DNA of 64,000 nt, taken from Patescibacteria group bacterium (GTDB lineage Bacteria; Patescibacteriota; CPR2; UBA1875; CAIMLA01). The DNA lies in NCBI GenBank assembly GCA_041738615.1, contig JBGSPL010000001.1, positions 158,564 through 222,563 of the forward strand. Direction: 5' to 3'. Under the pieces are notes generated by a model, which was given only the letters and a program-made list of their open reading frames with translations, was not told the origin of the DNA and ran no database searches. Both the position numbers and the translations under genes were made by a program. Shown here in pieces: positions 11,790 to 38,095 of this stretch. Every line of letters begins with the position of its first letter. The stretch's first letter is position 1.

Positions 11790-12722
11790 ATCGGAAAGTA
11801 TATTATTGAGTTCCTCTTGACTCGAGACCAGCATCGCTCGTTTGCGAATGTCTTTTGCTCCTGCGAAGCCCTGAATATACCACCCTAGGTGTTTGCGCAT
11901 CATTCTCATGGCGTGCTCTTCGTCACCGACAAAATCAATCGTAGCTTGCGCTTGCCTTTTGATCACCTCGGAAATCTGCTCAAAAGTTATCTTATTATCT
12001 TTTTTAGTCTTAATCTCTTGAAATAGCCACGGCTTGCCCAGACATCCTCGTCCAACCATAATTCCTGAAAGCCCAGGAGTTTGTATTCTCTCTTGTGCAA
12101 TCCGCCAAGAGCTAATGTCGCCATTCCCGATGATTGGCATTTGGACCTGGGCGGTAATTTCTGCAATTTTGTCCCAGTCAGCCTCGCCAGAGTAGCCTTC
12201 TTTAGTGGTCCGACCGTGTATGGTGACCGCATCGATACCGATTTTTTCAAGTTCGAGGATAAATGGTAAAACATCTTTTTCCATCCAACCCAAGCGAACT
12301 TTAACCGATAGTTGGCCATGATAACCATCCCTCACCTTTTTCATTAGCTCGAGGGCTTTCGGATAGTCTTTGAGTAGGGCCGATCCGCATTCATTACCGG
12401 TTATCTTTGGTGCCGGACAACCCATATTGATGTCGATTCCTGCAGGCTTCAGTTCCTTCGCAACAATATTTGCAGCCTTTGCAATAGTGTCGCCATCGTA
12501 ACCGAAAATCTGCACAATCACCGGCTGCTCCTCCGGAAGAAAAGAGGCAATTCGGAGCGTTCTTTTGGGATTGTGAGTGATGGCGTTGGCTGAAAACATT
12601 GGTGTAAAAACGATATCGGCACCAAATTCTTTGCAAATTGAACGAAATGGCAGAGTCGTAATATCTGCCATAGGTGCCAGCACAACTGCCGGCTTTTTGA
12701 TTGTTGACCAAGCGAAAGCCAA
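11781..12722 (-). CDS. dus: tRNA-dihydrouridine synthase (Dus family)
   Basis: 313 aa; LAPMADITTLPFR...TIHGRT...PIIGNGDI TIM-barrel FMN motifs. Confidence 0.85.
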   Translation of the reverse strand: MAFAWSTIKKPAVVLAPMADITTLPFRSICKEFGADIVFTPMFSANAITHNPKRTLRIASFLPEEQPVIVQIFGYDGDTIAKAANIVAKELKPAGIDINMGCPAPKITGNECGSALLKDYPKALELMKKVRDGYHGQLSVKVRLGWMEKDVLPFILELEKIGIDAVTIHGRTTKEGYSGEADWDKIAEITAQVQMPIIGNGDISSWRIAQERIQTPGLSGIMVGRGCLGKPWLFQEIKTKKDNKITFEQISEVIKRQAQATIDFVGDEEHAMRMMRKHLGWYIQGFAGAKDIRKRAMLVSSQEELNNILSDLK

Positions 12723-28998: not shown

Positions 28999-29376
28999 CT
29001 ACTTCGGACGAAGCTGAATCTCATGGTTCAGAGTGTCCTTCATGGACTGAGGGACCGCGTCATACCATGCGCTGGTCGCCGAGATGTACGGTCCTCGAAG
29101 CTCAGTGGGGAGCAACTCGCTGGTCCAGAGACCGAGGTAGAGCTTGTTGCCGCCGGTGACGATAAGAGACTCGCGGCTCGGACGACCTGGATGATTGCTG
29201 GCGGCCTTCAGAGCTTGCCATTGGCGCAGCGCACTGCGCACGTTCGCGCGATAGACCGCATCCAAGACATTGGAATCGTGGGCGAGTATGGACTCCCCCA
29301 GCTGTTCGAGAATTTCTCCGGCCTCCAGAAGCCTTGTGGTGTCCGCCTCGACTTGCTCTTTGCTCCTTGTGTCCAT
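28999..29376 (-). CDS. Hypothetical protein (125 aa), high GC
   Basis: MDTRSKEQVEADTTRLLEAGEILEQL...; SD AGGAGAG before ATG 29376; longer overlapping ORFs on both strands judged artefacts of GC richness. Confidence 0.4.
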   Translation of the reverse strand: MDTRSKEQVEADTTRLLEAGEILEQLGESILAHDSNVLDAVYRANVRSALRQWQALKAASNHPGRPSRESLIVTGGNKLYLGLWTSELLPTELRGPYISATSAWYDAVPQSMKDTLNHEIQLRPK

Positions 29377-29509
29377 GACGACTCTCCTGTTCGTCGGGTG
29401 TTGGGCATAGTGGTACTGCGTCTTGCGACGCCTAAATATAACATTATTGCCATATGTGGTCAAGAAGACCGGGGCGTGAGCAAAACGCCACCTAGGACCT
29501 CGTGTGGGG

Positions 29510-29833
29510 TTACAGACCCTTTGCAGCCTGTATTTCTCGGCGCATCTGCTCGAGATCTGGTTCACTTCCCTTACAGAAGAATGCGCGACAAACCTGAGGT
29601 CGGCGAGAGTGGATACTGCACTTGCCCCCAGTGAGATATATGCAGCTCCCATCCGTATTCTGCGCGACTATATTGGCACCACACTCAGAGGCCGTAGGAA
29701 AATTATCAAATATATCGGCTTTTGGGAACATAGCTAAGTATTTGCCTGACCGATACTCCTTCTCATTCAGATTGATAAGAAATAGCCGGCAGCAAATTCC
29801 GCACGCGTCACAACTGTCTTCGGTATGTTTCAT
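29510..29833 (-). CDS. YkgJ-family Cys-cluster protein (CxxCxxCC putative Zn/Fe-chelating domain)
   Basis: 107 aa; CDACGICC...C...C..C pattern characteristic of PF03692-type proteins. Confidence 0.65.
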   Translation of the reverse strand: MKHTEDSCDACGICCRLFLINLNEKEYRSGKYLAMFPKADIFDNFPTASECGANIVAQNTDGSCIYLTGGKCSIHSRRPQVCRAFFCKGSEPDLEQMRREIQAAKGL

Positions 29834-29895
29834 GTATACATTCTAGCAGCAATCTCATAAACCTTGAATCAGTAGTTCAAAAGTGCTATATTACA

Positions 29896-30390
29896 TTGTC
29901 ACTATACTGTGGCGACGAACTCAAGGACGGGGGTGAGCATGTGGCTCATGAAGAATTGGTACGGAGTATCACAGAGGCGATGCAGGAATTCGAACGGCAC
30001 AACGTGCTTGGCGACAAGCTAAAGGCCCAGGCAAGAGCGGAGTACGTTACCGCCGATGATTCACTGCGGCATCGAGCCGATGATATGGCAAAACTGTATT
30101 GCCATATCATGTCACAAAGCCTAGCTACTGACGAGATCAGGCAATCAAGTGCCTACATCATCATTGTGTGCAGAAACCAGGAGCACGTTGATGTTGATCT
30201 CTGTCAGGCCATCCTAGTGCTCGCGGATGCCTCCGGGGAGGTCCTGAGCGACCTCGATCGAGCGGCACGGAAGACCGATTTCCCTAGTCTGCGTGCCATC
30301 TTCTGTACGCTTCAGGTGGAAGAGTCCAAAGCCGACTACTACGCCATGGCCATCATGAAACTCTATCGCAGCACAGGTTGCTGCAACTAG
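29896..30390 (+). CDS. Hypothetical protein (about 150-164 aa; TTG or GTG start)
   Basis: High-GC ORF, protein-like composition; no motif recognised. Confidence 0.4.
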   Translation: MSLYCGDELKDGGEHVAHEELVRSITEAMQEFERHNVLGDKLKAQARAEYVTADDSLRHRADDMAKLYCHIMSQSLATDEIRQSSAYIIIVCRNQEHVDVDLCQAILVLADASGEVLSDLDRAARKTDFPSLRAIFCTLQVEESKADYYAMAIMKLYRSTGCCN

Positions 30391-30527
30391 CGCTCAAAGC
30401 GCGCGCTCCGTACTATCCGTACGACGGCGCTGCACTTTGGGCGCCTTTCGTATATATTCAAAAGAAGACGCCCCCGTTGCAAGGAAACAACGAGGTTGTC
30501 TTCTTTGCCGCGGGGGCGGTAGTCTGG

Positions 30528-30968
30528 CTACTCCGTGGTCGGACAGCTCTCACAAGGCTGTGGACTCGTGACACTGAGCATCCCTGGAATGGGAGCTTTG
30601 TGGAGCACCCAACAAGCTAGAGTGAGGTGGAAGCATGGGTTCAGGTGTGAACAGAGCCCGTTTCCGTCATCGAAGTGACCAAGATCGAGCAGGCGCGTAA
30701 TAAGCTCAGAACGCCTGGTGATACTCAGAACCGGGATGAGCTCCCTTACCTTGGTCGTCACATACAACACGTGGTCAACCTGTGCAACAACTCTGGCATA
30801 GCGCCACTTGTCGAGGAGGGGGTCAAGGAGATCCCACCAAGGGTAACTGTCCTGTCGGACATACAGAAGTTCCAGCTCCTCGCGAAGCCTCGAAAGGTGC
30901 TTTTCGGCACCCGCCAAGAAGGCGTGAAGCTGTTCCTCAACGACTTCGCTTTCGTGCTCCTCAAGCAT
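30528..30968 (-). CDS. Hypothetical acidic helical protein (146 aa)
   Basis: MLEEHESEVVEEQLHAFLAGAEKHLSRLREELELLYV...; preferred over the overlapping plus-strand ORF 30675..31166. Confidence 0.35.
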   Translation of the reverse strand: MLEEHESEVVEEQLHAFLAGAEKHLSRLREELELLYVRQDSYPWWDLLDPLLDKWRYARVVAQVDHVLYVTTKVRELIPVLSITRRSELITRLLDLGHFDDGNGLCSHLNPCFHLTLACWVLHKAPIPGMLSVTSPQPCESCPTTE

Positions 30969-31045
30969 TGTTGCCCCTCTCCGAAGTATCGCAACAGTAG
31001 CTTACGACCGAGATTATACAACAGGGACTTAGTATTGTCTAGGGT

Positions 31046-32281
31046 CTATGAGTTACGTAGTACTCCATCTAGATTCCTAGCTTCCTCACTAGTCAGAAGT
31101 GACATTTCGTTATATCCGAGCAGACTGAGTCCCTCAATGTCACGGATACGAGATAAGGCCACATAACCCAGACCGTAGGTAAAAGACCTAGAAAGATCAA
31201 TTTCGGCATAGTCCAGGGTCATTCCTTGGCTTTTGTGGATTGTTATGGCCCAGGCCAAACGCAATGGTATTTGTTCTATCCAATCATCGGCGCCAATCTC
31301 ATCGGTCCCCCATCGCATTGGCGCGGCGAGCACAGTGTCTCCCCGGAATGTTTCTACTATCGGATATCCGGTATCTACATCAAAATCGGTTATGGTTCCC
31401 GTAGTTCCGTTCACGTAATTTTTGGTGGGATTGTTGAAAACAAACATTACAACAGCTCCTATTTTTAGCCTCAATACCTCTGGGGCTAGGCAACCCTTTC
31501 GCATCTGGGTGACGATATAACTGTCGCCACTATCTTTCATCTTAAATACATATTCCCTTTCAGTCAGAGCGCTTAACCGGTTTTCATTATAAGTGTCCAC
31601 ATTAACATTGTGTGTATATAGCTTAGTTGGGATTATAGTCTCGTCGAAAGGATACCTCAGCCTACTAGTAAGCAGTTCTACAGTATCTTCACTTACGCGA
31701 GACTCGCGTATCTCGTTGAGAACTTGGTGCAAAGAATTGTTTTCGGTTTGCCGATACTGTTTGTCCAAGTAGCAAACACTGAGGTCCATCTGCTGCCAGG
31801 CCGCGGAGAGATTCACAAAATTGCCCCGATTCTTTACCCTAGATACGGGAGGTAGCTGAAAAAAGTCACCGCAGAGAATCACTTGGAGTCCACCGAACGG
31901 TCCAAGCTCTGTACGGACTCTTCGACAAATCTCGTCTACAAGGTCTAGTTGATAATCGTGAAGCATAGAGACTTCGTCGATAATAAGGACGTCTGCTTCC
32001 TGAACTCGTTTTACCGCAGCCTTGTTCTTCGTAAACATCTTCTTGATTTCGCTTGGGGTCATGCGGTCCTTGATACCCATACCGCTCCATGAGTGAATGG
32101 TAACGCCACCCAGATGCGTTGCCGCGATACCGGTAGATGCCGTGATCCCCACCTTGATCTTGTTTTTGTTCAAATACGCTATGAATTGATTTAATAAATA
32201 GGTCTTGCCTGTGCCGGCCTGGCCTGTAATAAGAGCGTTTTTACCGCTTACTAGTATCTCGAAGGCTTCTTCTTGTGTCAT
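31046..32281 (-). CDS. PIF1/RecD-family SF1B DNA helicase
   Basis: 411 aa; Walker A GQAGTGKTYLL, Walker B LIIDEVSML, GDFFQLPPV, C-terminal ITIHKSQGMT; AAA_30 + UvrD_C_2-like arrangement. Confidence 0.85.
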   Translation of the reverse strand: MTQEEAFEILVSGKNALITGQAGTGKTYLLNQFIAYLNKNKIKVGITASTGIAATHLGGVTIHSWSGMGIKDRMTPSEIKKMFTKNKAAVKRVQEADVLIIDEVSMLHDYQLDLVDEICRRVRTELGPFGGLQVILCGDFFQLPPVSRVKNRGNFVNLSAAWQQMDLSVCYLDKQYRQTENNSLHQVLNEIRESRVSEDTVELLTSRLRYPFDETIIPTKLYTHNVNVDTYNENRLSALTEREYVFKMKDSGDSYIVTQMRKGCLAPEVLRLKIGAVVMFVFNNPTKNYVNGTTGTITDFDVDTGYPIVETFRGDTVLAAPMRWGTDEIGADDWIEQIPLRLAWAITIHKSQGMTLDYAEIDLSRSFTYGLGYVALSRIRDIEGLSLLGYNEMSLLTSEEARNLDGVLRNS

Positions 32282-32470
32282 TACATTATTATCCCTAGTT
32301 TCGGTTGCTAAAACTAGTAGACAGTCCCTCTTTGCAGGTAAATGTCATAATGCGCTATTCAAAACTCCGATTTAGTCGTATAATGCTCATGTTTTGCAGC
32401 TTTACAGACAGATAGTAGTTTACGTAGATTTCGGCGGCGATAATTGCCGAAAACAGGGAAGGAGCACTCC

Positions 32471-32644
32471 ATGTGCGGAGAAATACCGGCGGGATTTGGC
32501 CCGGGAGGAATTGGCTGGCTCGGGGATTGTCAGCCTGTCCAAGCTCCCAGTACAGCTGTACAGGGCGATACCACCAAGGCTAGTCTGGAGGTATCGGAGG
32601 CTTCGGCCCAAGACCCTGCCTCTAGCAGCGATACGCCGAGCTGA
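32471..32644 (+). CDS. Small acidic protein (57 aa) with strong SD
   Basis: GGAAGGAG-6 nt-ATG; MCGEIPAGFGPGGIGWLGDCQPV...; high GC; terminated by the hairpin at 32755-32795. Confidence 0.4.
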   Translation: MCGEIPAGFGPGGIGWLGDCQPVQAPSTAVQGDTTKASLEVSEASAQDPASSSDTPS

Positions 32645-32754
32645 CCCCCTCGATGCCCCCCACTCCCTATTTACTACTTTCTATCTACCGTCACTCAAGT
32701 GACAACCTGCACAGACTTGGCCGGATTCCACTCGTGGGACCCGGCCTAGTGCAT

Positions 32755-32795
32755 TAAAAAGGAGCGACCAAGCGGTCGCTCCTTGAGTATTTCTT
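32755..32795. terminator. Bidirectional terminator AAGGAGCGACC-AAGC-GGTCGCTCCTT
   Basis: Perfect 11-bp stem between convergent genes. Confidence 0.65.
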
Positions 32796-32798
32796 AGT

Positions 32799-33416
32799 CT
32801 ACAGTTTTACGTAAATCGTTTTGTTGCTCCAAAAGCTTGGTTTAAATACTAGCTTAAGGCCTGTGTCTCCCGCTGGGACCTCAAAAACCATTGTCCCTGT
32901 CACCTTACCGCCCGGTGCAAGGTTTCCAGAATTCAGCTTGTTCTCAGCGTCAACAAATGTCTCCGTTTTCAAGACGCCGCTACTGTCCTGAACCTGAAAA
33001 TCGAAGGTATTGAAACTCACCTGGTCTGTGCCGTTATTCTCAATACTTACCTCGACAAGAACATATTCTTTCCCTGACTCTGGAACCATATATTCATTGC
33101 CGGTGCTATAGTTTCGTGTTGCTTTAGTGACTCTTAGAATCTGCTTGTCTATACTCGCAGCTTCACCAACGATGTAATCTGATTTTGCAGCGGCAATCTT
33201 GGACTCAGTACTACTCTTACCCGTCGTGGTGGTAGTCGTTTTGCCGCCACCGGTGGCAGAGATAACTGCTCCAAGCAAAATGATACCCAGGATGACCGAG
33301 ATAACCTTATGTTGTACAAACCAATTTCTTAAATCTGCACCACAGTGCTTACATTTTACAGCGCCTTTTGCGATGTCCTCTTTACACTTTGGGCACTTTA
33401 CTACTTCTTCAGCCAT
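32799..33416 (-). CDS. Zinc-ribbon / single-TM / DUF4352-type beta-sandwich membrane protein
   Basis: 205 aa; CPKCK...CKHCG N-terminal zinc ribbon, TM helix, Thr-rich linker, C-terminal domain ...EYVLVEVSIENNGT...GTMVFEVP typical of DUF4352. Confidence 0.65.
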   Translation of the reverse strand: MAEEVVKCPKCKEDIAKGAVKCKHCGADLRNWFVQHKVISVILGIILLGAVISATGGGKTTTTTTGKSSTESKIAAAKSDYIVGEAASIDKQILRVTKATRNYSTGNEYMVPESGKEYVLVEVSIENNGTDQVSFNTFDFQVQDSSGVLKTETFVDAENKLNSGNLAPGGKVTGTMVFEVPAGDTGLKLVFKPSFWSNKTIYVKL

Positions 33417-33490
33417 GTATTCCCCTTTCGTGGTTAATATCTAGCCTGATTTTAGCCCTGCACTAGCATAAATGTCAAATATTAGCCCAG

Positions 33491-34072
33491 TTATTTAGCG
33501 CCGTACACTACGAACCCTTGGTGCCTAAGATCCTCGGCGAGTTTCTTCTCTGCTGTCTGGGCCTCTTCTTTGGTCTTAATAGCACTAGGTACCCAAAGAT
33601 CTGTTCGCAAGATGGGATTCTCGGCTTTGCGGACTTTTACAGATGAATTGTAACCTGAGATATGTTGTGCAAGCCGTATTTCTGGGTCGTATATAGACTG
33701 TCCCACGTAAACCTTTTTGGGATTATTATCGAGCTCGATGACGTACAGCTGCCAGAAACCCTTTTGAAGGTGTGAGCCAGCTATTACTTGATAGTTCTTT
33801 TCTGTAAGTATCTCTACTTGGTCCAAAACGAGCTTCTTTGCTTCGTCTTCTGTGTTTATTGGCTTGATTTTAGCTGATTTTTCAACCAGCATTGCAGGCT
33901 TCTTGCCATGACGAACACTGCGCACAAACTTTTCAAAACACTTTTGGATGTGATCTTGGCTATACTGAATAAATAGCTTTCTGGAGCCCTTATTGATCTC
34001 GAAAATATATATCTGATAAGGAATGATCGCCGAATCGGGGCTGATATCTAGATTGGGAGTAACTTCTTTCAT
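33491..34072 (-). CDS. GIY-YIG nuclease-domain protein with uncharacterised N-terminal domain
   Basis: 193 aa; ...WQLYVIELDNNPKKVYVGQSIYDPEIRLAQHISG... fits GIY-(10-11)-YIG-...-R-...-H; AT-rich host-like composition. Confidence 0.6.
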   Translation of the reverse strand: MKEVTPNLDISPDSAIIPYQIYIFEINKGSRKLFIQYSQDHIQKCFEKFVRSVRHGKKPAMLVEKSAKIKPINTEDEAKKLVLDQVEILTEKNYQVIAGSHLQKGFWQLYVIELDNNPKKVYVGQSIYDPEIRLAQHISGYNSSVKVRKAENPILRTDLWVPSAIKTKEEAQTAEKKLAEDLRHQGFVVYGAK

Positions 34073-34200
34073 GAGTGTATTATAACGTACTTTTGTGCTT
34101 AATAATAGGTAAACCTACAGTTACGAAAGGCGCCCAGTAGTGCAGCGCCAATCTTGCGGATAGGCGTGCGCTCTGGGCGCTTGGTGACCAACTAGCCGTG

Positions 34201-34671
34201 TTACGAAACCGGTTCGGTGGCGTATTGCCGGGTTGGCTTTGGCTCTTCGTAGAGAGGGTTCTCGATGCGGCCGCCGACGACGGCCTGCTTGTAGGTGTCC
34301 TGGTCGACGATGATGGTGAAGTCGAGCTTGTCCCAGTATGTGGGCTCGTCGTCGCCTGGGTCGGCTAGTACAGCGTAGCGCGCACGGACAAGTAGCTCGA
34401 AACAGGTCGGTTCCCCGAGCTCCCACGGGTAGGATGAGAGTAGAGATAGGTCATTTCCAAGTGGGCCGTTCGTGAACGAAAGCGCTGGCGCGAGCTTCTC
34501 GACGACCGTGACGTACCGGTGGCTCTTCTTGATTGCCACCTTCTCGTTTCTATTGTCGATCGCGATGGCGCAGATGAACAAGACGATAATAATGACCACC
34601 AGTGCGACGATGAGGGCCAGGAAGCCCCCAGTAATCGCAAGTGCCCATTGCCACCAAGCCCAATACGGCAT
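34201..34671 (-). CDS. Hypothetical N-terminally membrane-anchored protein (156 aa), high GC
   Basis: SD GGGGAGGGG before ATG; TM LALIVALVVIIIVLFICAIAI then soluble domain. Confidence 0.5.
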   Translation of the reverse strand: MPYWAWWQWALAITGGFLALIVALVVIIIVLFICAIAIDNRNEKVAIKKSHRYVTVVEKLAPALSFTNGPLGNDLSLLSSYPWELGEPTCFELLVRARYAVLADPGDDEPTYWDKLDFTIIVDQDTYKQAVVGGRIENPLYEEPKPTRQYATEPVS

Positions 34672-34740
34672 GACCCCTCCCCTGACGAAGTGACCTTACG
34701 CCTTAGTATAGGCAAAGATTACAAATAGTCAAGAGTATAT

Positions 34741-34790
34741 ACGAAAAGAGTCCGCGCCGGAGGCGCATAGCGCAGACTCCTTCGCGGACC
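34741..34790 (-). repeat. Copy 1 of ~50-bp palindromic terminator-like repeat
   Basis: ACGAAAAGAGTCCGCGCCGGAGGCGCATAGCGCAGACTCCTTCGCGGAC; minus strand forms a long imperfect hairpin followed by TCTTTTCGT; sits just 3' of gene 34797..35804. Confidence 0.7.
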
Positions 34791-34796
34791 GTAGTG

Positions 34797-35804
34797 TTAG
34801 GACCCGATACTTGACGTGTCTTCGTCATCCTTAGACAGCTCGATACCCTCTTCTTCCTCGTAGTGAATGTCGATCGGTCCTGGCATGTATGAAGCAATCA
34901 CCTGGCAGATAGCGACATCGAGGCCGTCGTCCTGCCAATCCTTGCCTGGACTACGAACAACAACGATACCGCCGAGGATTTCACCGACGAGAACGAGTCC
35001 GGGAATCTGACCTATCTCGAGCCGTATCTCTGGTAGAGCCAAGCTAGAAGCTGCGGGTCGACCCAAATCGTCGAAATCTCCACCGAATGGATATGGGTGA
35101 TAAGGAGGCAACCCGTAGACAGTGTAACGGTGGACGTTCTCGGCTAGCGCGTCGATGTAGATGAAAAGCAATGGGTTGTCTCCGTTGCGCTTCTCTCGAA
35201 CGAGGCTGTCGATTTCGCCAACCAGTACTTTGACCTTCTCTGAGACATCAGCGGAACCGATGAACCCAACGGCTTTGTCGGCTGGGTCTGACGTCTCGAG
35301 GTCTTCCCACAATTCCTCAGAAGTGAGACCTGAGAGCTCGCGACGAAACTCGTCGACAATGTCATGTGTCGCGAGCTCTTGTTTGCGCTGACGCGCGATT
35401 TCTTCAGTCACAGCTTCGTCAAGACCGACGAGGATAGAGGTGATGAACGCCTCTAGCTCGATAAGCTCATCGGTAGCCACCCGGCTCTTTGCCAACATTC
35501 GTTTGTAGGTGAATTGAGCTTGCCGCGCTTCCTCGGTAAGATCAGAGTGATTCTTCTTGTACTCCTGGGCAATGCCCTGGATCCACCTCGACCGGCGCAT
35601 CTTGAGAAAGATCTCACCGGTATCGTCGGTGAGTTCCTCGGCCGGTAGGATGAGCATCCTCTCGAGCAACACCATCACTGACGAAAGGTTCGGCAGTAGT
35701 CTCTCGGGCTCTTCGTAGCCTACGACCTCAAAGTCATGAGCGACGGCGGCGAGGCAGTCGATCACGTCTCGCACCCATGCTGTGCTGGTGTCATGGAACG
35801 ACAT
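34797..35804 (-). CDS. Hypothetical acidic protein (335 aa), high GC
   Basis: SD GGAGGGAG-6-ATG; no recognisable catalytic motif; flanked on both sides by the palindromic repeat. Confidence 0.55.
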   Translation of the reverse strand: MSFHDTSTAWVRDVIDCLAAVAHDFEVVGYEEPERLLPNLSSVMVLLERMLILPAEELTDDTGEIFLKMRRSRWIQGIAQEYKKNHSDLTEEARQAQFTYKRMLAKSRVATDELIELEAFITSILVGLDEAVTEEIARQRKQELATHDIVDEFRRELSGLTSEELWEDLETSDPADKAVGFIGSADVSEKVKVLVGEIDSLVREKRNGDNPLLFIYIDALAENVHRYTVYGLPPYHPYPFGGDFDDLGRPAASSLALPEIRLEIGQIPGLVLVGEILGGIVVVRSPGKDWQDDGLDVAICQVIASYMPGPIDIHYEEEEGIELSKDDEDTSSIGS

Positions 35805-35890
35805 GACCGGCTCCCTCCGTCGGTTTTCAAGGTATCGTTGTCCTTGCGGGTATTATACATAAGGCCACTAGATATACAAGCCCCATAAAC

Positions 35891-35940
35891 GAAGGGAGTC
35901 CGCGCCGGAGGCGCATGGCGCAGACTCCTTCGCGGACTCG
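35891..35940 (-). repeat. Copy 2 of the palindromic repeat (about 3 mismatches to copy 1)
   Basis: ACGAAGGGAGTCCGCGCCGGAGGCGCATGGCGCAGACTCCTTCGCGGACTC just 3' of gene 35971..36288. Confidence 0.7.
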
Positions 35941-35970
35941 TGTTGCCGTACACACGGCTGAAGGGGATGT

Positions 35971-36288
35971 CTACAGACAGAATCTCTCCGGAACCTTGAA
36001 GCGGAAGGGAGAGAATTCCCTCTTCGGTGCAGGACGATAGTAGCCTATACAAGGGCTTTCGTCCTCTGCTTCAATCAGAACGTAGAGCTCCTGCCCGTGT
36101 AGCTGCTTCTTGAGAAACTCCAGAACTGGGCCTATCTTGCCTCGATTACCCTTGGGTTTGTAGTAGAGGCAGAAGTAGAGAATCCCTTGGTACCGCCTCA
36201 GTACTACCTTGCCGTTCACCCACTGGCGAACGATTTCTGTCACCTCTTCGGGTGTCAAGGGACGGTTGTTCGTCTTCCTTCTTCCCAT
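35971..36288 (-). CDS. Hypothetical basic protein (105 aa)
   Basis: SD GAGAGGGGAAAC-ATG; MGRRKTNNRPLTPEEVTEIVRQW... Confidence 0.45.
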   Translation of the reverse strand: MGRRKTNNRPLTPEEVTEIVRQWVNGKVVLRRYQGILYFCLYYKPKGNRGKIGPVLEFLKKQLHGQELYVLIEAEDESPCIGYYRPAPKREFSPFRFKVPERFCL

Positions 36289-36423
36289 GTTTCCCCTCTC
36301 GGCGTTCGGAACTATACAACAAGCGTACTAGTTTGCACCTCCATTTGTCGTAGGTGACGCTTGTGGATTCTGTAAGGTACTCTCATCGGTATACCCAGAT
36401 GTCGGGAAACGGGCAGCTGACCC

Positions 36424-36750
36424 CTAGGAAACCAGGGCGGCGGCGATGAAGGCGAGCAGCTCGCTCGGCTTGGACGAGTGAACGTGGACTTCCTGAAGGC
36501 CACTCGGCCGACGGTCGATGACCTTCACCCCGACGACAGGGGCTTCCTTGCCCGGTGTGCAGGCGTGCAGCTCAGTGGCCCTGCGGTAGGGCCTTGCGGG
36601 ACGCATCGGCTTCTCGGTAGGCTTAGCGCTCTTGTGCGTAATGCGGGCGGTTGGGTCAGGACAGTCCTCATGAGCGAGGATTGCCTGGACGTCACCGAGA
36701 AGCGGAAAGGCCTTCTGGCTGTGCTTTTCGCGCTGAGATCGAGTTGACAT
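36424..36750 (-). CDS. Hypothetical protein (108 aa), high GC
   Basis: SD GGGGAGAAC before ATG 36750; first gene after the island's right-end promoter. Confidence 0.45.
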   Translation of the reverse strand: MSTRSQREKHSQKAFPLLGDVQAILAHEDCPDPTARITHKSAKPTEKPMRPARPYRRATELHACTPGKEAPVVGVKVIDRRPSGLQEVHVHSSKPSELLAFIAAALVS

Positions 36751-36845
36751 TCGTTCTCCCCTGTCGATGCCTACAAGACTGGTACTTAACCTATACTCCC
36801 TTCGGCATGATGCAACCGCATCCTTGGATCCCTTAGAATGCTAAG

Positions 36846-36875
36846 ATTATATCCCCTAGATAGGGCAAAACGCAA
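36846..36875 (-). promoter_or_regulatory. Candidate promoter TTGCGT-18-TATAAT with a palindrome (CCCTA-GA-TAGGG) in the spacer
   Basis: Minus-strand -35/-10 read directly; positioned ~90 nt upstream of gene 36750 and reading leftward into the island. Confidence 0.35.
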
Positions 36876-37907: not shown

Positions 37908-37936
37908 AATCAAAAATCTCTTTCCACCGAAAGAGA
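37908..37936 (-). terminator. Expression-platform intrinsic terminator of the metK riboswitch
   Basis: Minus strand TCTCTTTC-GGTG-GAAAGAGA followed by TTTTT, 25 nt before the metK SD. Confidence 0.65.
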
Positions 37937-37960
37937 CAAGTTCGACCTTTTCATATAGGA

Positions 37961-38095
37961 CTTATCGCTCCACTTTCGTGGCTAGCATTGGCACCCTACA
38001 GCTCTAGGGTTGCCGGCAGGTACCACCATCGCAAAAGATTGCTCTTTCGGTCAGGCATCGGGCTAGTTCCCTATCTGCGCTCTTGATATATTTGA
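37961..38095 (-). promoter_or_regulatory. SAM-I (S-box) riboswitch aptamer candidate upstream of metK
   Basis: Minus strand ...TATCAAGAGCGCAGATAGGGAACTAGCCCGATGCC...GGCAACC...GGGTGCCAATGCTAGCC...GAGCGATAAG matches the SAM-I core (AUCAAGAG, AGGGA, GCCCGAUG, GGCAACC, GGUGCCAAU, P1 closing GAUAAG) with an enlarged P3 insert. Confidence 0.6.

Follow-up and report, generated by a model that had tools for sequence, protein, structure and literature searches.

A lineage-restricted hairpin family that may terminate the transcription units of an orphan-gene module in Patescibacteria

Why does a near-identical GC-rich palindrome stand twice, about 1.1 kb apart, on a CPR/Patescibacteria chromosome? The window, the 64-kb stretch of DNA analysed here (46.5% GC), contains a 53-nt direct repeat at 34737-34789 and 35885-35937 with both copies in the same orientation (92% identity in the repeat search). 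The 42-nt core (34748-34789 and 35896-35937) is identical at 41 of 42 positions, the single mismatch being an R base in the loop, and 0.00 chance matches were expected from 100 shuffles. This confirms what the sequence-only reading of the locus had described, a palindrome present twice in one orientation. That reading had the right sites, but its coordinates were 1-3 nt off (the 49-mer it quoted lies at 34741-34789 and 35889-35937). It was also correct that each copy lies just 3' of a gene. The first copy, A1, is 7 nt downstream of the stop codon of a 335-aa gene, and the second, A2, is 31 nt downstream of that of a 105-aa gene. Both copies read the same in an independent Logan assembly, so the repeat is not an assembly artefact. 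Gene duplication as its source was ruled out, because the proteins encoded upstream of A1 and A2 are unrelated.

The two copies belong to a GC-rich island with the following features:

34100..36850, no strand assigned: GC-rich island, 52-65% GC in a genome of ~46% GC, housing four orphan genes and flanked by metK and a GIY-YIG gene
36424..36750, minus strand: 108-aa orphan gene, the first of the island, GC3 0.73, 90% amino-acid identity to L021, the closest relative
35971..36288, minus strand: 105-aa orphan gene upstream of A2, found in this genome and L021 only
35885..35939, minus strand: hairpin A2 and tail, reading on the minus strand GAGTCCGCG-AA-GGAG-TCT-GCGC-CAT-GCGC-CTCC-GG-CGCGGACTC, then CCTTCGTTTAT
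35852..35879, minus strand: promoter-like TTGTAT-16-(TG)TATAAT of the 335-aa gene, directly 3' of the A2 tail, read by eye
34797..35804, minus strand: 335-aa orphan gene between A2 and A1, whose acidic product has a helical N-terminal domain
34736..34789, minus strand: hairpin A1 and tail, the same 40-nt hairpin as A2 with loop TAT, then TCTTTTCGTATATA
34705..34732, minus strand: sigma-70-like promoter TTGACT-16-TATACT of the 156-aa gene, directly 3' of the A1 tail
34201..34671, minus strand: 156-aa orphan gene with a hydrophobic N-terminal segment, GC3 0.74, window-specific relative to L021

The GC3 of the island genes is 0.62-0.74 versus 0.43-0.55 for host genes, and the same contrast is found in L021 and in a second genome, L025. 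By this compositional measure the island is a foreign-looking module. The 335-, 105- and 108-aa proteins have no match in Pfam, NCBIfam, PADLOC or PHROGs; the 156-aa protein has none in Pfam, NCBIfam or PADLOC and one weak PHROG match of unknown function (E 9e-4). The 335-aa gene is a single-copy locus. The AlphaFold model of its product is confident for residues ~10-130 only and has no PDB fold match at E <= 0.001, the family has no invariant histidine, and a search of IMG/VR with the family found no match.

Folded on the minus strand in a 76-nt context, A1 reaches -27 kcal/mol (z -3.3) and A2 -40 kcal/mol (z -4.5). The GC-rich hairpin first proposed for both copies therefore holds, but the tail proposed with it, TCTTTTCGT, follows the first copy only; the second has TCCCTTCGT. 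In full, the tails are UCUUUUCGU for A1, part of which is flagged by the terminator scan, and UCCCUUCGUUU for A2, which is not flagged. Both hairpins are on the gene-sense strand, between a stop codon and the promoter-like site and Shine-Dalgarno sequence of the next gene. The -35 element lies 17 nt beyond A1 and ~17 nt beyond A2, and the next promoter begins 14-18 nt downstream of the hairpin. The promoter-like site at 35852..35879 falls below the -35 criterion of the promoter scan; its equivalent after the upstream hairpin of another genome, L053, which comes from JGI 3300040998, is TTGATT...AATAAT.

The A-type family comprises six copies in four genomes (two each in the window and L053, one each in L021 and L025). 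The copy in L021, at 12032-12081, is the orthologue of A2. The single copy in L025 is 3' of a 336-aa homologue (32% identity) of the 335-aa protein, and the two copies in L053 flank a 327-aa homologue (24% identity). These are the only two homologues found of the 335-aa gene, and each is followed by an A-type hairpin; the neighbourhoods of gene and hairpin differ among the window, L025 and L053. Covariance model R1 scores A2 at 84.4 bits and A1 at 81.6 bits, and a model made without L053 gives its two hairpins 46 and 32 bits. Covariance-model searches of L022 and L054-L058 found no copies. In the ~100 kb of relatives searched, the copies in L021, L025 and L053 are orthologous or linked to the module only.

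Of the cells in the six-copy alignment, 96.7% are paired; compensatory changes occur in four pairs. The covariation score exceeds that of all 500 shuffles, and slid registers are only 34-56% paired; an alternative register, S2, in which the tail pairs with the invariant CGAAGG block, has nearly equal support. All one-sided changes are G·U or U·G, on the sense strand only, and the antisense ssDNA loses this fold in three of the six copies (L021, L025 and L053-U). These wobbles favour selection on the sense-strand RNA.

The 41/42 identity of two copies 1.1 kb apart could also come from a local duplication that is neutral and functionless, but covariation and conservation between genomes contradict this origin. 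The orthologue in L021 differs from the window hairpin only in structure-neutral ways while the flanking DNA is ~82% identical, and family members persist, with compensatory substitutions, beside homologues that are 24-32% identical. We consider a neutral duplication extremely unlikely.

Conservation of primary sequence is found in the stem base (GTCCGYGAAGG / GGCGCGGAC), in a tandem A/G internal loop and in the tail; the apex is free in sequence and length. Stem base and TTCGT tail are conserved across genomes whose adjacent proteins are 24-32% identical and whose housekeeping proteins are 71-88% identical; the L025 copy has no TTCGT. This pattern suggests an additional, sequence-specific partner. 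A duplex-DNA operator was excluded, as the spacing of the arms varies with apex length among copies. The partner could be a putative protein, maybe encoded in the module, which would bind or process the mRNA at the hairpin and so control stability or expression of the orphan genes and not termination as such. Such a site would fit the conserved base, loop and tail with their free apex, a conservation that outlasts that of the adjacent protein, the selection on the sense strand and the confinement of the hairpins to one co-occurring gene module. However, none of the 105-, 108-, 156- and 335-aa proteins matches a family or fold (the weak PHROG match aside), and none offers itself as an RNA-binding candidate. 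In L025, where hairpin and 336-aa homologue are both present, tblastn with the 108-, 105- and 156-aa proteins found no match in 10 kb of that genome. There is no Rfam family either, with no match at the gathering threshold in the window or at E<=1 in 33.4-38.3 kb. We regard this role as unlikely.

A second type of hairpin occurs in the window, also twice:

34121..34190, minus strand: hairpin B and tail CCTTTCGTAA, the 3' end of the 156-aa gene
30392..30452, plus strand: second copy of hairpin B and tail CCTTTCGTATATA, 3' of a GC3-rich orphan ORF (29896..30390)

Hairpin B is unrelated to the A hairpins yet bears the same TTCGT tail. To the copy at 30392..30452 corresponds an orthologue at 15001-15063 of L021. 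The two Logan contigs terminate inside the window copy, at 30422-30446.

If the palindrome were mobile and REP-, BOX- or MITE-like, spread through the genome and landed here twice, further copies should be found. Pattern and covariance-model searches of the 64-kb window found no third A copy, and no k-mer word of the element is over-represented there. Exact-pattern scans of GTDB representatives (185,579 genomes), JGI metagenomes and IMG/VR gave no family member among the matches listed. A relaxed, structure-preserving pattern returned 18 singleton hairpins from the GTDB representatives and IMG/VR, in unrelated, mostly high-GC genomes and dissimilar at unconstrained positions, and we attribute these to chance. 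The 3' half with tail had no match in JGI metagenomes or IMG/VR. A broader pattern (GAAGGAG...GCGCGGRCTCYYTTC) had 26+1 matches there, all without the upstream CCGY, on high-GC contigs and in groups of near-identical sequences; these were rejected. Both patterns are too strict to match the L053 copies, so absence from metagenomes is unproven. An improved hairpin pattern had no match in IMG/VR, and blastn against phages and plasmids gave partial matches only (E >= 0.1).

The A hairpins do resemble REP/BIME, BOX, RUP and Correia-type elements, which are short, intergenic, GC-rich imperfect palindromes at gene 3' ends with potential terminator or mRNA-stabilising activity (PMC3184786). They too are GC-rich imperfect palindromes of ~40-50 nt at gene 3' ends with more than one near-identical copy. 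Mobility would account for two such copies beside unrelated genes, for a second family that is also present twice, and for the breaks of both Logan contigs within hairpin B, as can happen at repeats. Unlike REP/BIME elements, however, the A hairpins are not dispersed: the two copies in 64 kb are in one island and tied to one orphan-gene module, and in relatives they are orthologous, module-linked or, in L022 and L054-L058, missing. They form no clusters of alternating orientation, have no GTAG motif and have variable 5' flanks, and the window contains no RAYT gene. Unlike MITEs, each is one hairpin without separate terminal inverted repeats, no target-site duplication was found, and in all orthologues the TTCGT tail belongs to the hairpin itself and is no duplication. 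DNA uptake sequences (DUS/USS), whose inverted pairs lie in terminators, share a terminator-like palindrome conserved beyond structural need; they occur about once per kilobase, and no word of the A element is over-represented in the window. The suggestion of a REP/BOX-like mobile palindrome is thus largely refuted for the searched sequence, and we rate it as very unlikely. The comparison with high-GC bacteria that accompanied it does not apply to a window of 46.5% GC.

The explanation that we find somewhat more probable than its negation is that the hairpins are a small, lineage-restricted RNA-hairpin family. Within a narrow lineage of CPR/Patescibacteria, they would close off the transcription units of an orphan-gene module that evolves fast and is compositionally foreign. 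Each would be transcribed as the 3' end of the preceding gene and would most likely work as a terminator of the intrinsic type that also stabilises the 3' end and insulates the promoter downstream; termination itself is the inferred step. Of the three initial suggestions, a reiterated intrinsic terminator is thus the best supported, by position, covariation, sense-strand wobbles and the hits of the covariance model, and it is weakened by the poor U-tract, chiefly in the second copy. Like intrinsic terminators, the A hairpins are GC-rich sense-strand stem-loops soon after a stop codon, with a pyrimidine- or U-rich tail and a promoter beyond it, and their fold is kept by compensatory and G·U changes. 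The next hits of the covariance model after the A and B hairpins are mainly canonical terminators with A-tract, stem and T-tract, at 61.5, 63.2, 40.1, 27.7 and 11.7 kb. Unlike these native terminators, whose long T-runs are perfect, the A hairpins have a short U-tract always interrupted by CG (UUCGU). The U-tract of the L021 copy is interrupted too (UCCUUUCGUAA), and the L025 and L053 tails are richer in U than those of the window. Stem base and tail are also conserved across genomes far more than termination would require. Neither their identity between genomes nor the tail shared by hairpin B is accounted for by a generic terminator. The near-identity of A1 and A2 may reflect shared ancestry or homogenisation by gene conversion; the hairpin-gene-hairpin arrangement is also found around the 24%-identical homologue in L053.

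The locus differs between the window and L021 by one segment:

34123..35888, minus strand: 1,766-bp segment of the window that L021 lacks, containing promoter-335aa-A1-promoter-156aa-B

Both ends of this segment are immediately 3' of a hairpin+YYTTCGT motif. The flanks in L021 match the left flank of A2 at 43/60 positions and the right flank of B at 41/60, versus 3-17/60 for other candidates. Inside the segment, TTTCGTA again stands at either end of the 156-aa unit. The interval from metK to the Pif1 helicase is a variable hotspot among relatives. The idea of a recombination repeat flanking gene 34797..35804 is partly supported: in L021 that gene is absent and only one copy of the hairpin is present. 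What L021 lacks is a larger segment, however, which includes the 156-aa gene and has its right breakpoint at B and not at A1. The GIY-YIG neighbour was considered as the responsible nuclease and set aside: it is conserved beside metK in relatives without hairpins and has no specific link to them.

These breakpoints raise the possibility that a hairpin with a TTCGT(A/T) tail is a recombination site, with promoter-gene-hairpin units exchanged right after the tail, as in attC x attC recombination or at the targets of HUH endonucleases, which consist of a hairpin and an adjacent cleavage site. Any terminator role would then be secondary. The position of both breakpoints, the flank matches, the bounded 156-aa unit, the tail on the unrelated hairpin B, the hotspot and the changing neighbourhoods of the 335-aa family gene and its hairpin are all consistent with such a site. 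So is the attC-like architecture, with a conserved paired base, an unpaired 2x2 spacer, a bulge and a length-variable apex. As in integron attC arrays (species-specific ones such as Vibrio VCRs, and CALINs), imperfect palindromes stand 3' of each gene unit, in tandem, in one orientation and near-identical within the array, and gene content changes with breakpoints at the sites, here in a single event. CALINs are attC clusters without an integrase, with at least two attC sites and an array of promoterless cassettes.

Several observations argue against exchange. No gene for a transposase, integrase (IntI included), tyrosine recombinase, HUH endonuclease or RAYT was found in the 64-kb window. The A hairpins end in GTCCGYG / CGCGGAC followed by YYTTCGT, without the canonical attC cores (R'' RYYYAAC and R' GTTRRRY). 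The shortest known attC sites are about 55-60 nt, and the A hairpin is 40 nt. Unlike integron cassettes, the units each come with a promoter-like site and a Shine-Dalgarno sequence of their own, and the wobbles point to coding-strand RNA and not to bottom-strand DNA. The presence/absence difference is a single indel event, which microhomology-mediated deletion or slippage at hairpins would explain equally well. Moreover, the insertion of a nearby DUF4352 gene uses an ordinary terminator without TTCGT, and the L025 copy also lacks this motif. IS200/IS605 ends and PATEs are comparable: there, as here in the window and L053, a gene stands between two similar, like-oriented subterminal hairpins, and a conserved short motif keeps a constant distance to the foot of the hairpin. 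They differ in that there is no TnpA (Y1/HUH) or TnpB here; the 335-aa protein, without an invariant His and without a Pfam, NCBIfam, PHROG, PADLOC or PDB fold match, is encoded by a single-copy gene. In addition, the upstream hairpin is the 3' end of the preceding gene, and L025 has the downstream hairpin only. We view a recombination site as improbable. Slightly more doubtful is its extended form, a new CPR cassette-exchange system that would move self-contained promoter-gene-hairpin units of a GC-rich accessory pool with a recombinase or HUH-type nuclease encoded elsewhere, A and B being variants of a site analogous to attC and unrelated to it in sequence. Were it true, the predicted junctions are A2-...CTTTCGTAACTGTAGG for the empty site and B-...TTTCGTA+TATACTCTTGACT and A1-...TTCGT+TTATGGGGCTTG for circles.

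If the hairpins are terminators, as we favour, gene gain and loss between relatives at hairpin+TTCGT sites would be a side effect. Between the two closest genomes, gene content at this locus differs only by the 1,766-bp segment, whose breakpoints both lie exactly at such sites. Should these reflect site-specific exchange, they would mark a route by which tiny CPR genomes shuffle accessory genes; should they reflect slippage at hairpins, they would be an ordinary route to gene loss. Transcription signals in CPR/Patescibacteria are essentially uncharacterised, and our literature search found no paper joining 'Patescibacteria' with 'intrinsic terminator'. As terminators, the hairpins would be a modest addition, a lineage-specific 3'-end element supported by covariation. 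Their base and tail outlast the conservation of the fast-evolving orphan protein beside them, which would imply that a sequence-specific partner acts on them.

A repeat search of the window recovered a 53-nt direct repeat (34737-34789 and 35885-35937; 92% identity), whose 42-nt core, GAGTCCGCGCCGGAGGCGCATRGCGCAGACTCCTTCGCGGAC, is found at exactly these two places in the 64 kb versus 0.00 expected from shuffles. This bears out the near-identical palindrome reported by the sequence-only reading, although its positions were 1-3 nt off. Read on the minus strand, the repeat is GTCCGCG-AA-GGAG-TCT-GCGC-YAT-GCGC-CTCC-GG-CGCGGAC, and the GC-rich hairpin proposed for that strand is recovered, with folding energies for the two copies of -27 and -40 kcal/mol in 76-nt context (z -3.3, -4.5). 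A Logan assembly made independently from the same organism is identical to the window over both copies, A1 and A2, and each copy does lie just 3' of a gene, as that reading had it.

Features of the locus and its relatives (window coordinates unless a relative is named)
~34.1-36.85 kb: GC-rich island (52-65% GC) between metK and the GIY-YIG gene, holding A1 and A2
35885-35939, minus strand: hairpin A2, 31 nt past the stop of the 105-aa gene
34736-34789, minus strand: hairpin A1, 7 nt past the stop of the 335-aa gene
34797-35804, minus strand: 335-aa gene; homologous genes at L025 6001-7011 and L053 403-1386
34121-34190, minus strand: hairpin B copy 1, GC-rich, different from A, 3' of the 156-aa gene
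30392-30452, plus strand: hairpin B copy 2, 3' of another GC3-rich orphan ORF, ~80% identical to copy 1 over ~65 nt
35888..34123: extra segment (1,766 bp), promoter-335aa-A1-promoter-156aa-B, absent from the closest relative

The host is not a high-GC bacterium: window GC is 46.5%. Housekeeping genes include an L10 leader with rplJL, tRNA-Gln, aminoacyl-tRNA synthetases, mreBCD with a PBP, thyA, folA, folD, glyA and metK. Relatives of MetK are annotated as Berkelbacteria, Saccharibacteria or 'bacterium' MAGs, so the window is a CPR/Patescibacteria chromosome. The island contains four minus-strand orphan genes (108, 105, 335 and 156 aa) with GC3 of 0.62-0.74 versus 0.43-0.55 for host genes, and their products gave no significant match in Pfam, NCBIfam, PADLOC or PHROG. 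A promoter-like -35/-10 pair begins at most 17-18 nt after each of A1 and A2, followed by the next gene's Shine-Dalgarno sequence.

All window genes of foreign composition (GC3 > 0.58) are orphan ORFs within 28999-32702 and 34201-36750. They form a cluster that runs from the rplJ leader to metK, and some host-like genes (CxxCxxCC protein, Pif1-type helicase, DUF4352, GIY-YIG) lie among them. The closest relative, L021 (GCA_964501135.1; MetK 90% identical, ~80% nucleotide synteny), has most of these orphan ORFs too, so the mosaic arose before the two genomes diverged and has yet to ameliorate.

L021 has the order metK-108-105-[one A hairpin]-GIY-YIG. Its hairpin differs from A2 at three positions only, a stem C-to-T (G·U pair kept) and single bases in the bulge and the loop, and the neighbouring DNA is ~82% identical to the window. 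Its left flank matches that of A2 (43/60 identical) and its right flank the one past hairpin B (41/60), versus 3-17/60 for the remaining candidates; the window thus carries the extra 1,766-bp segment, by either insertion in the window or deletion in L021. Both breakpoints fall directly 3' of a hairpin plus YYTTCGT. A1, A2 and both B copies end in YYTTCGT(A/T), the two orphan genes preceding B are unrelated to each other, and B is conserved in L021 (15001-15063). These junctions would suit a cassette-type recombination site formed by hairpin and TTCGT, which we consider an unlikely reading; a gene-cassette exchange site of CPR bacteria is a slightly slimmer prospect still. The two Logan contigs of sample SRR28170474 (69.5 kb and 20.1 kb) both stop inside the 30.4-kb B hairpin, overlapping by 25 nt (30422-30446), which suggests that the site is heterogeneous in the population or repeated at another place in the genome.

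The zinc-ribbon/DUF4352 gene (32799..33416; region 32756-33491) also lacks a counterpart in L021. This presence/absence unit stands apart from the first: its GC is host-like, it lacks a TTCGT motif, and it has a near-consensus promoter (TTGACA-18-TAAAAT) of its own as well as a canonical terminator (32759-32784). Between that terminator and the Pif1-type helicase gene, a GC-rich stretch (32350-32800; 54-57%), partly conserved in L021 (12712-13050), holds a conserved hairpin, GGCCGGGTCCCACGAGTGGAATCCGGCC, and one short opposite-strand ORF (57 aa; 48 aa in L021). It had no Rfam match at E<=0.1 and could encode a small protein or a previously unknown ncRNA. In more distant relatives, the interval from metK to the Pif1 helicase gene is a hotspot of variation. 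Past metK, L022 (11106-19778) carries GIY-YIG and then defence-type genes (Z1/SWI2-SNF2 helicase, EcoRI-type methylase, two GmrSD-like proteins), L055 carries DUF362, and L054 DUF1295 and TspO. The short metK is of CPR type, and its leader (37959-38092, minus strand) matches the SAM-I riboswitch RF00162 below threshold (29.5 bits versus a gathering score of 44.4, E 0.0012), with a terminator-like hairpin after it (37916-37937); the match is probably a genuine, if divergent, S-box.

Searched exhaustively with HMMER, 1.84 billion representative proteins yielded only two homologues of the 335-aa protein, making a family of three 50%-identity clusters. One, P0122, shares about 31-32% identity and comes from a fairly close CPR relative, L025 (SHMT 88%, DCD 81%, FolD 71% identical); set against SHMT, this implies extremely fast evolution. 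Nine nucleotides past its stop lies an A-type hairpin, GAGCCCGTGAAGGAG...GGCGCGGGCTCCTTTCTTT, in which a compensatory change has turned a T·A pair into C·G. The other, P0123 (24% identity), on the 1.45-kb metagenome contig L053, is bracketed as in the window by A-type hairpins, GGTCCGYGAAGG...GGCGCGGACCTTCTTCGTTT, which have entirely different apices and scored 46 and 32 bits with a covariance model built without L053. The AlphaFold model of the 335-aa protein is confident only for an N-terminal helical domain and had no fold match in the PDB; the C-terminus is acidic.

When the six copies are aligned, 96.7% of cells are paired, four pairs show compensatory changes, and the covariation score exceeds 500/500 shuffles; shifted registers lower pairing to 34-56%. 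This contradicts a local duplication without function, now hardly credible. Wherever only one side of a pair has changed, the gene-sense strand keeps a G·U or U·G pair, and antisense ssDNA gives up the fold in 3/6 copies, so selection acts on the sense strand; the selected molecule would most simply be RNA. A duplex-DNA operator is ruled out because arm spacing varies (apex 3 to ~25 nt). Conservation extends to the sequence itself in the tail, in the GAAGG block, in the AA/GG internal loop and at the base of the stem (GTCCGYG / CGCGGAC). In an alternative register, S2, the CYYTTCG tail pairs with the invariant CGAAGG block; with 92% of cells paired (four-copy alignment), S2 is almost as well supported as the main fold and might clamp the released 3' end.

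The sequence-only reading had also raised a REP/BOX-like mobile palindrome. A pattern search allowing 3 mismatches, k-mer enrichment and a covariance model with filters off all revealed no further A copy in the window. Relaxed structure-preserving patterns returned unrelated singleton hairpins or nothing from 185,579 GTDB representative genomes, JGI metagenomes and IMG/VR; phage and plasmid collections gave chance-level partial matches, and Rfam had no matching family. The L053 copies escaped these patterns because of their strictness, so the metagenome negatives apply to such exact patterns and do not establish absence of the family. The 64-kb window holds no integrase, transposase or HUH gene. 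Within the sequence searched, the A hairpin is not a dispersed repeat. Its form recalls REP elements and integron attC sites, but it lacks the dispersed copies, RAYT gene and GTAG motif of REP/BIME, the RYYYAAC/GTTRRRY core sites and IntI of attC (the cassettes here are not promoterless), the TnpA and TnpB of IS200/IS605 (the locus is single copy), and the terminal inverted repeats and target-site duplication of MITEs, features that define these families. A REP/MITE element, largely refuted for accessible sequence, is very doubtful; the earlier interpretation is thus partly supported, with the terminator its best-supported option.

In its working, the A element would resemble an intrinsic terminator. 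With the A and B hairpins set aside, what the covariance model scores highest in the window is mostly canonical terminators, in keeping with a terminator-like architecture. Three features speak against a plain terminator: the U-tract is weak and interrupted by CG, hairpin sequence conservation outlasts that of the adjacent protein, and the unrelated hairpin B has the same tail. These points keep two rivals alive: the recombination site, and a sequence-specific RNA-binding or processing site, to which we give an equally small chance. We class the element as an intergenic hairpin repeat of the terminator type whose sequence constraint is unexplained. The likeness of A1 and A2 may reflect common descent or gene conversion. 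On balance, we lean towards a lineage-restricted family of terminator-type RNA hairpins, which would end each transcription unit of an orphan-gene module that is foreign and evolves fast, and would insulate it from its neighbours.
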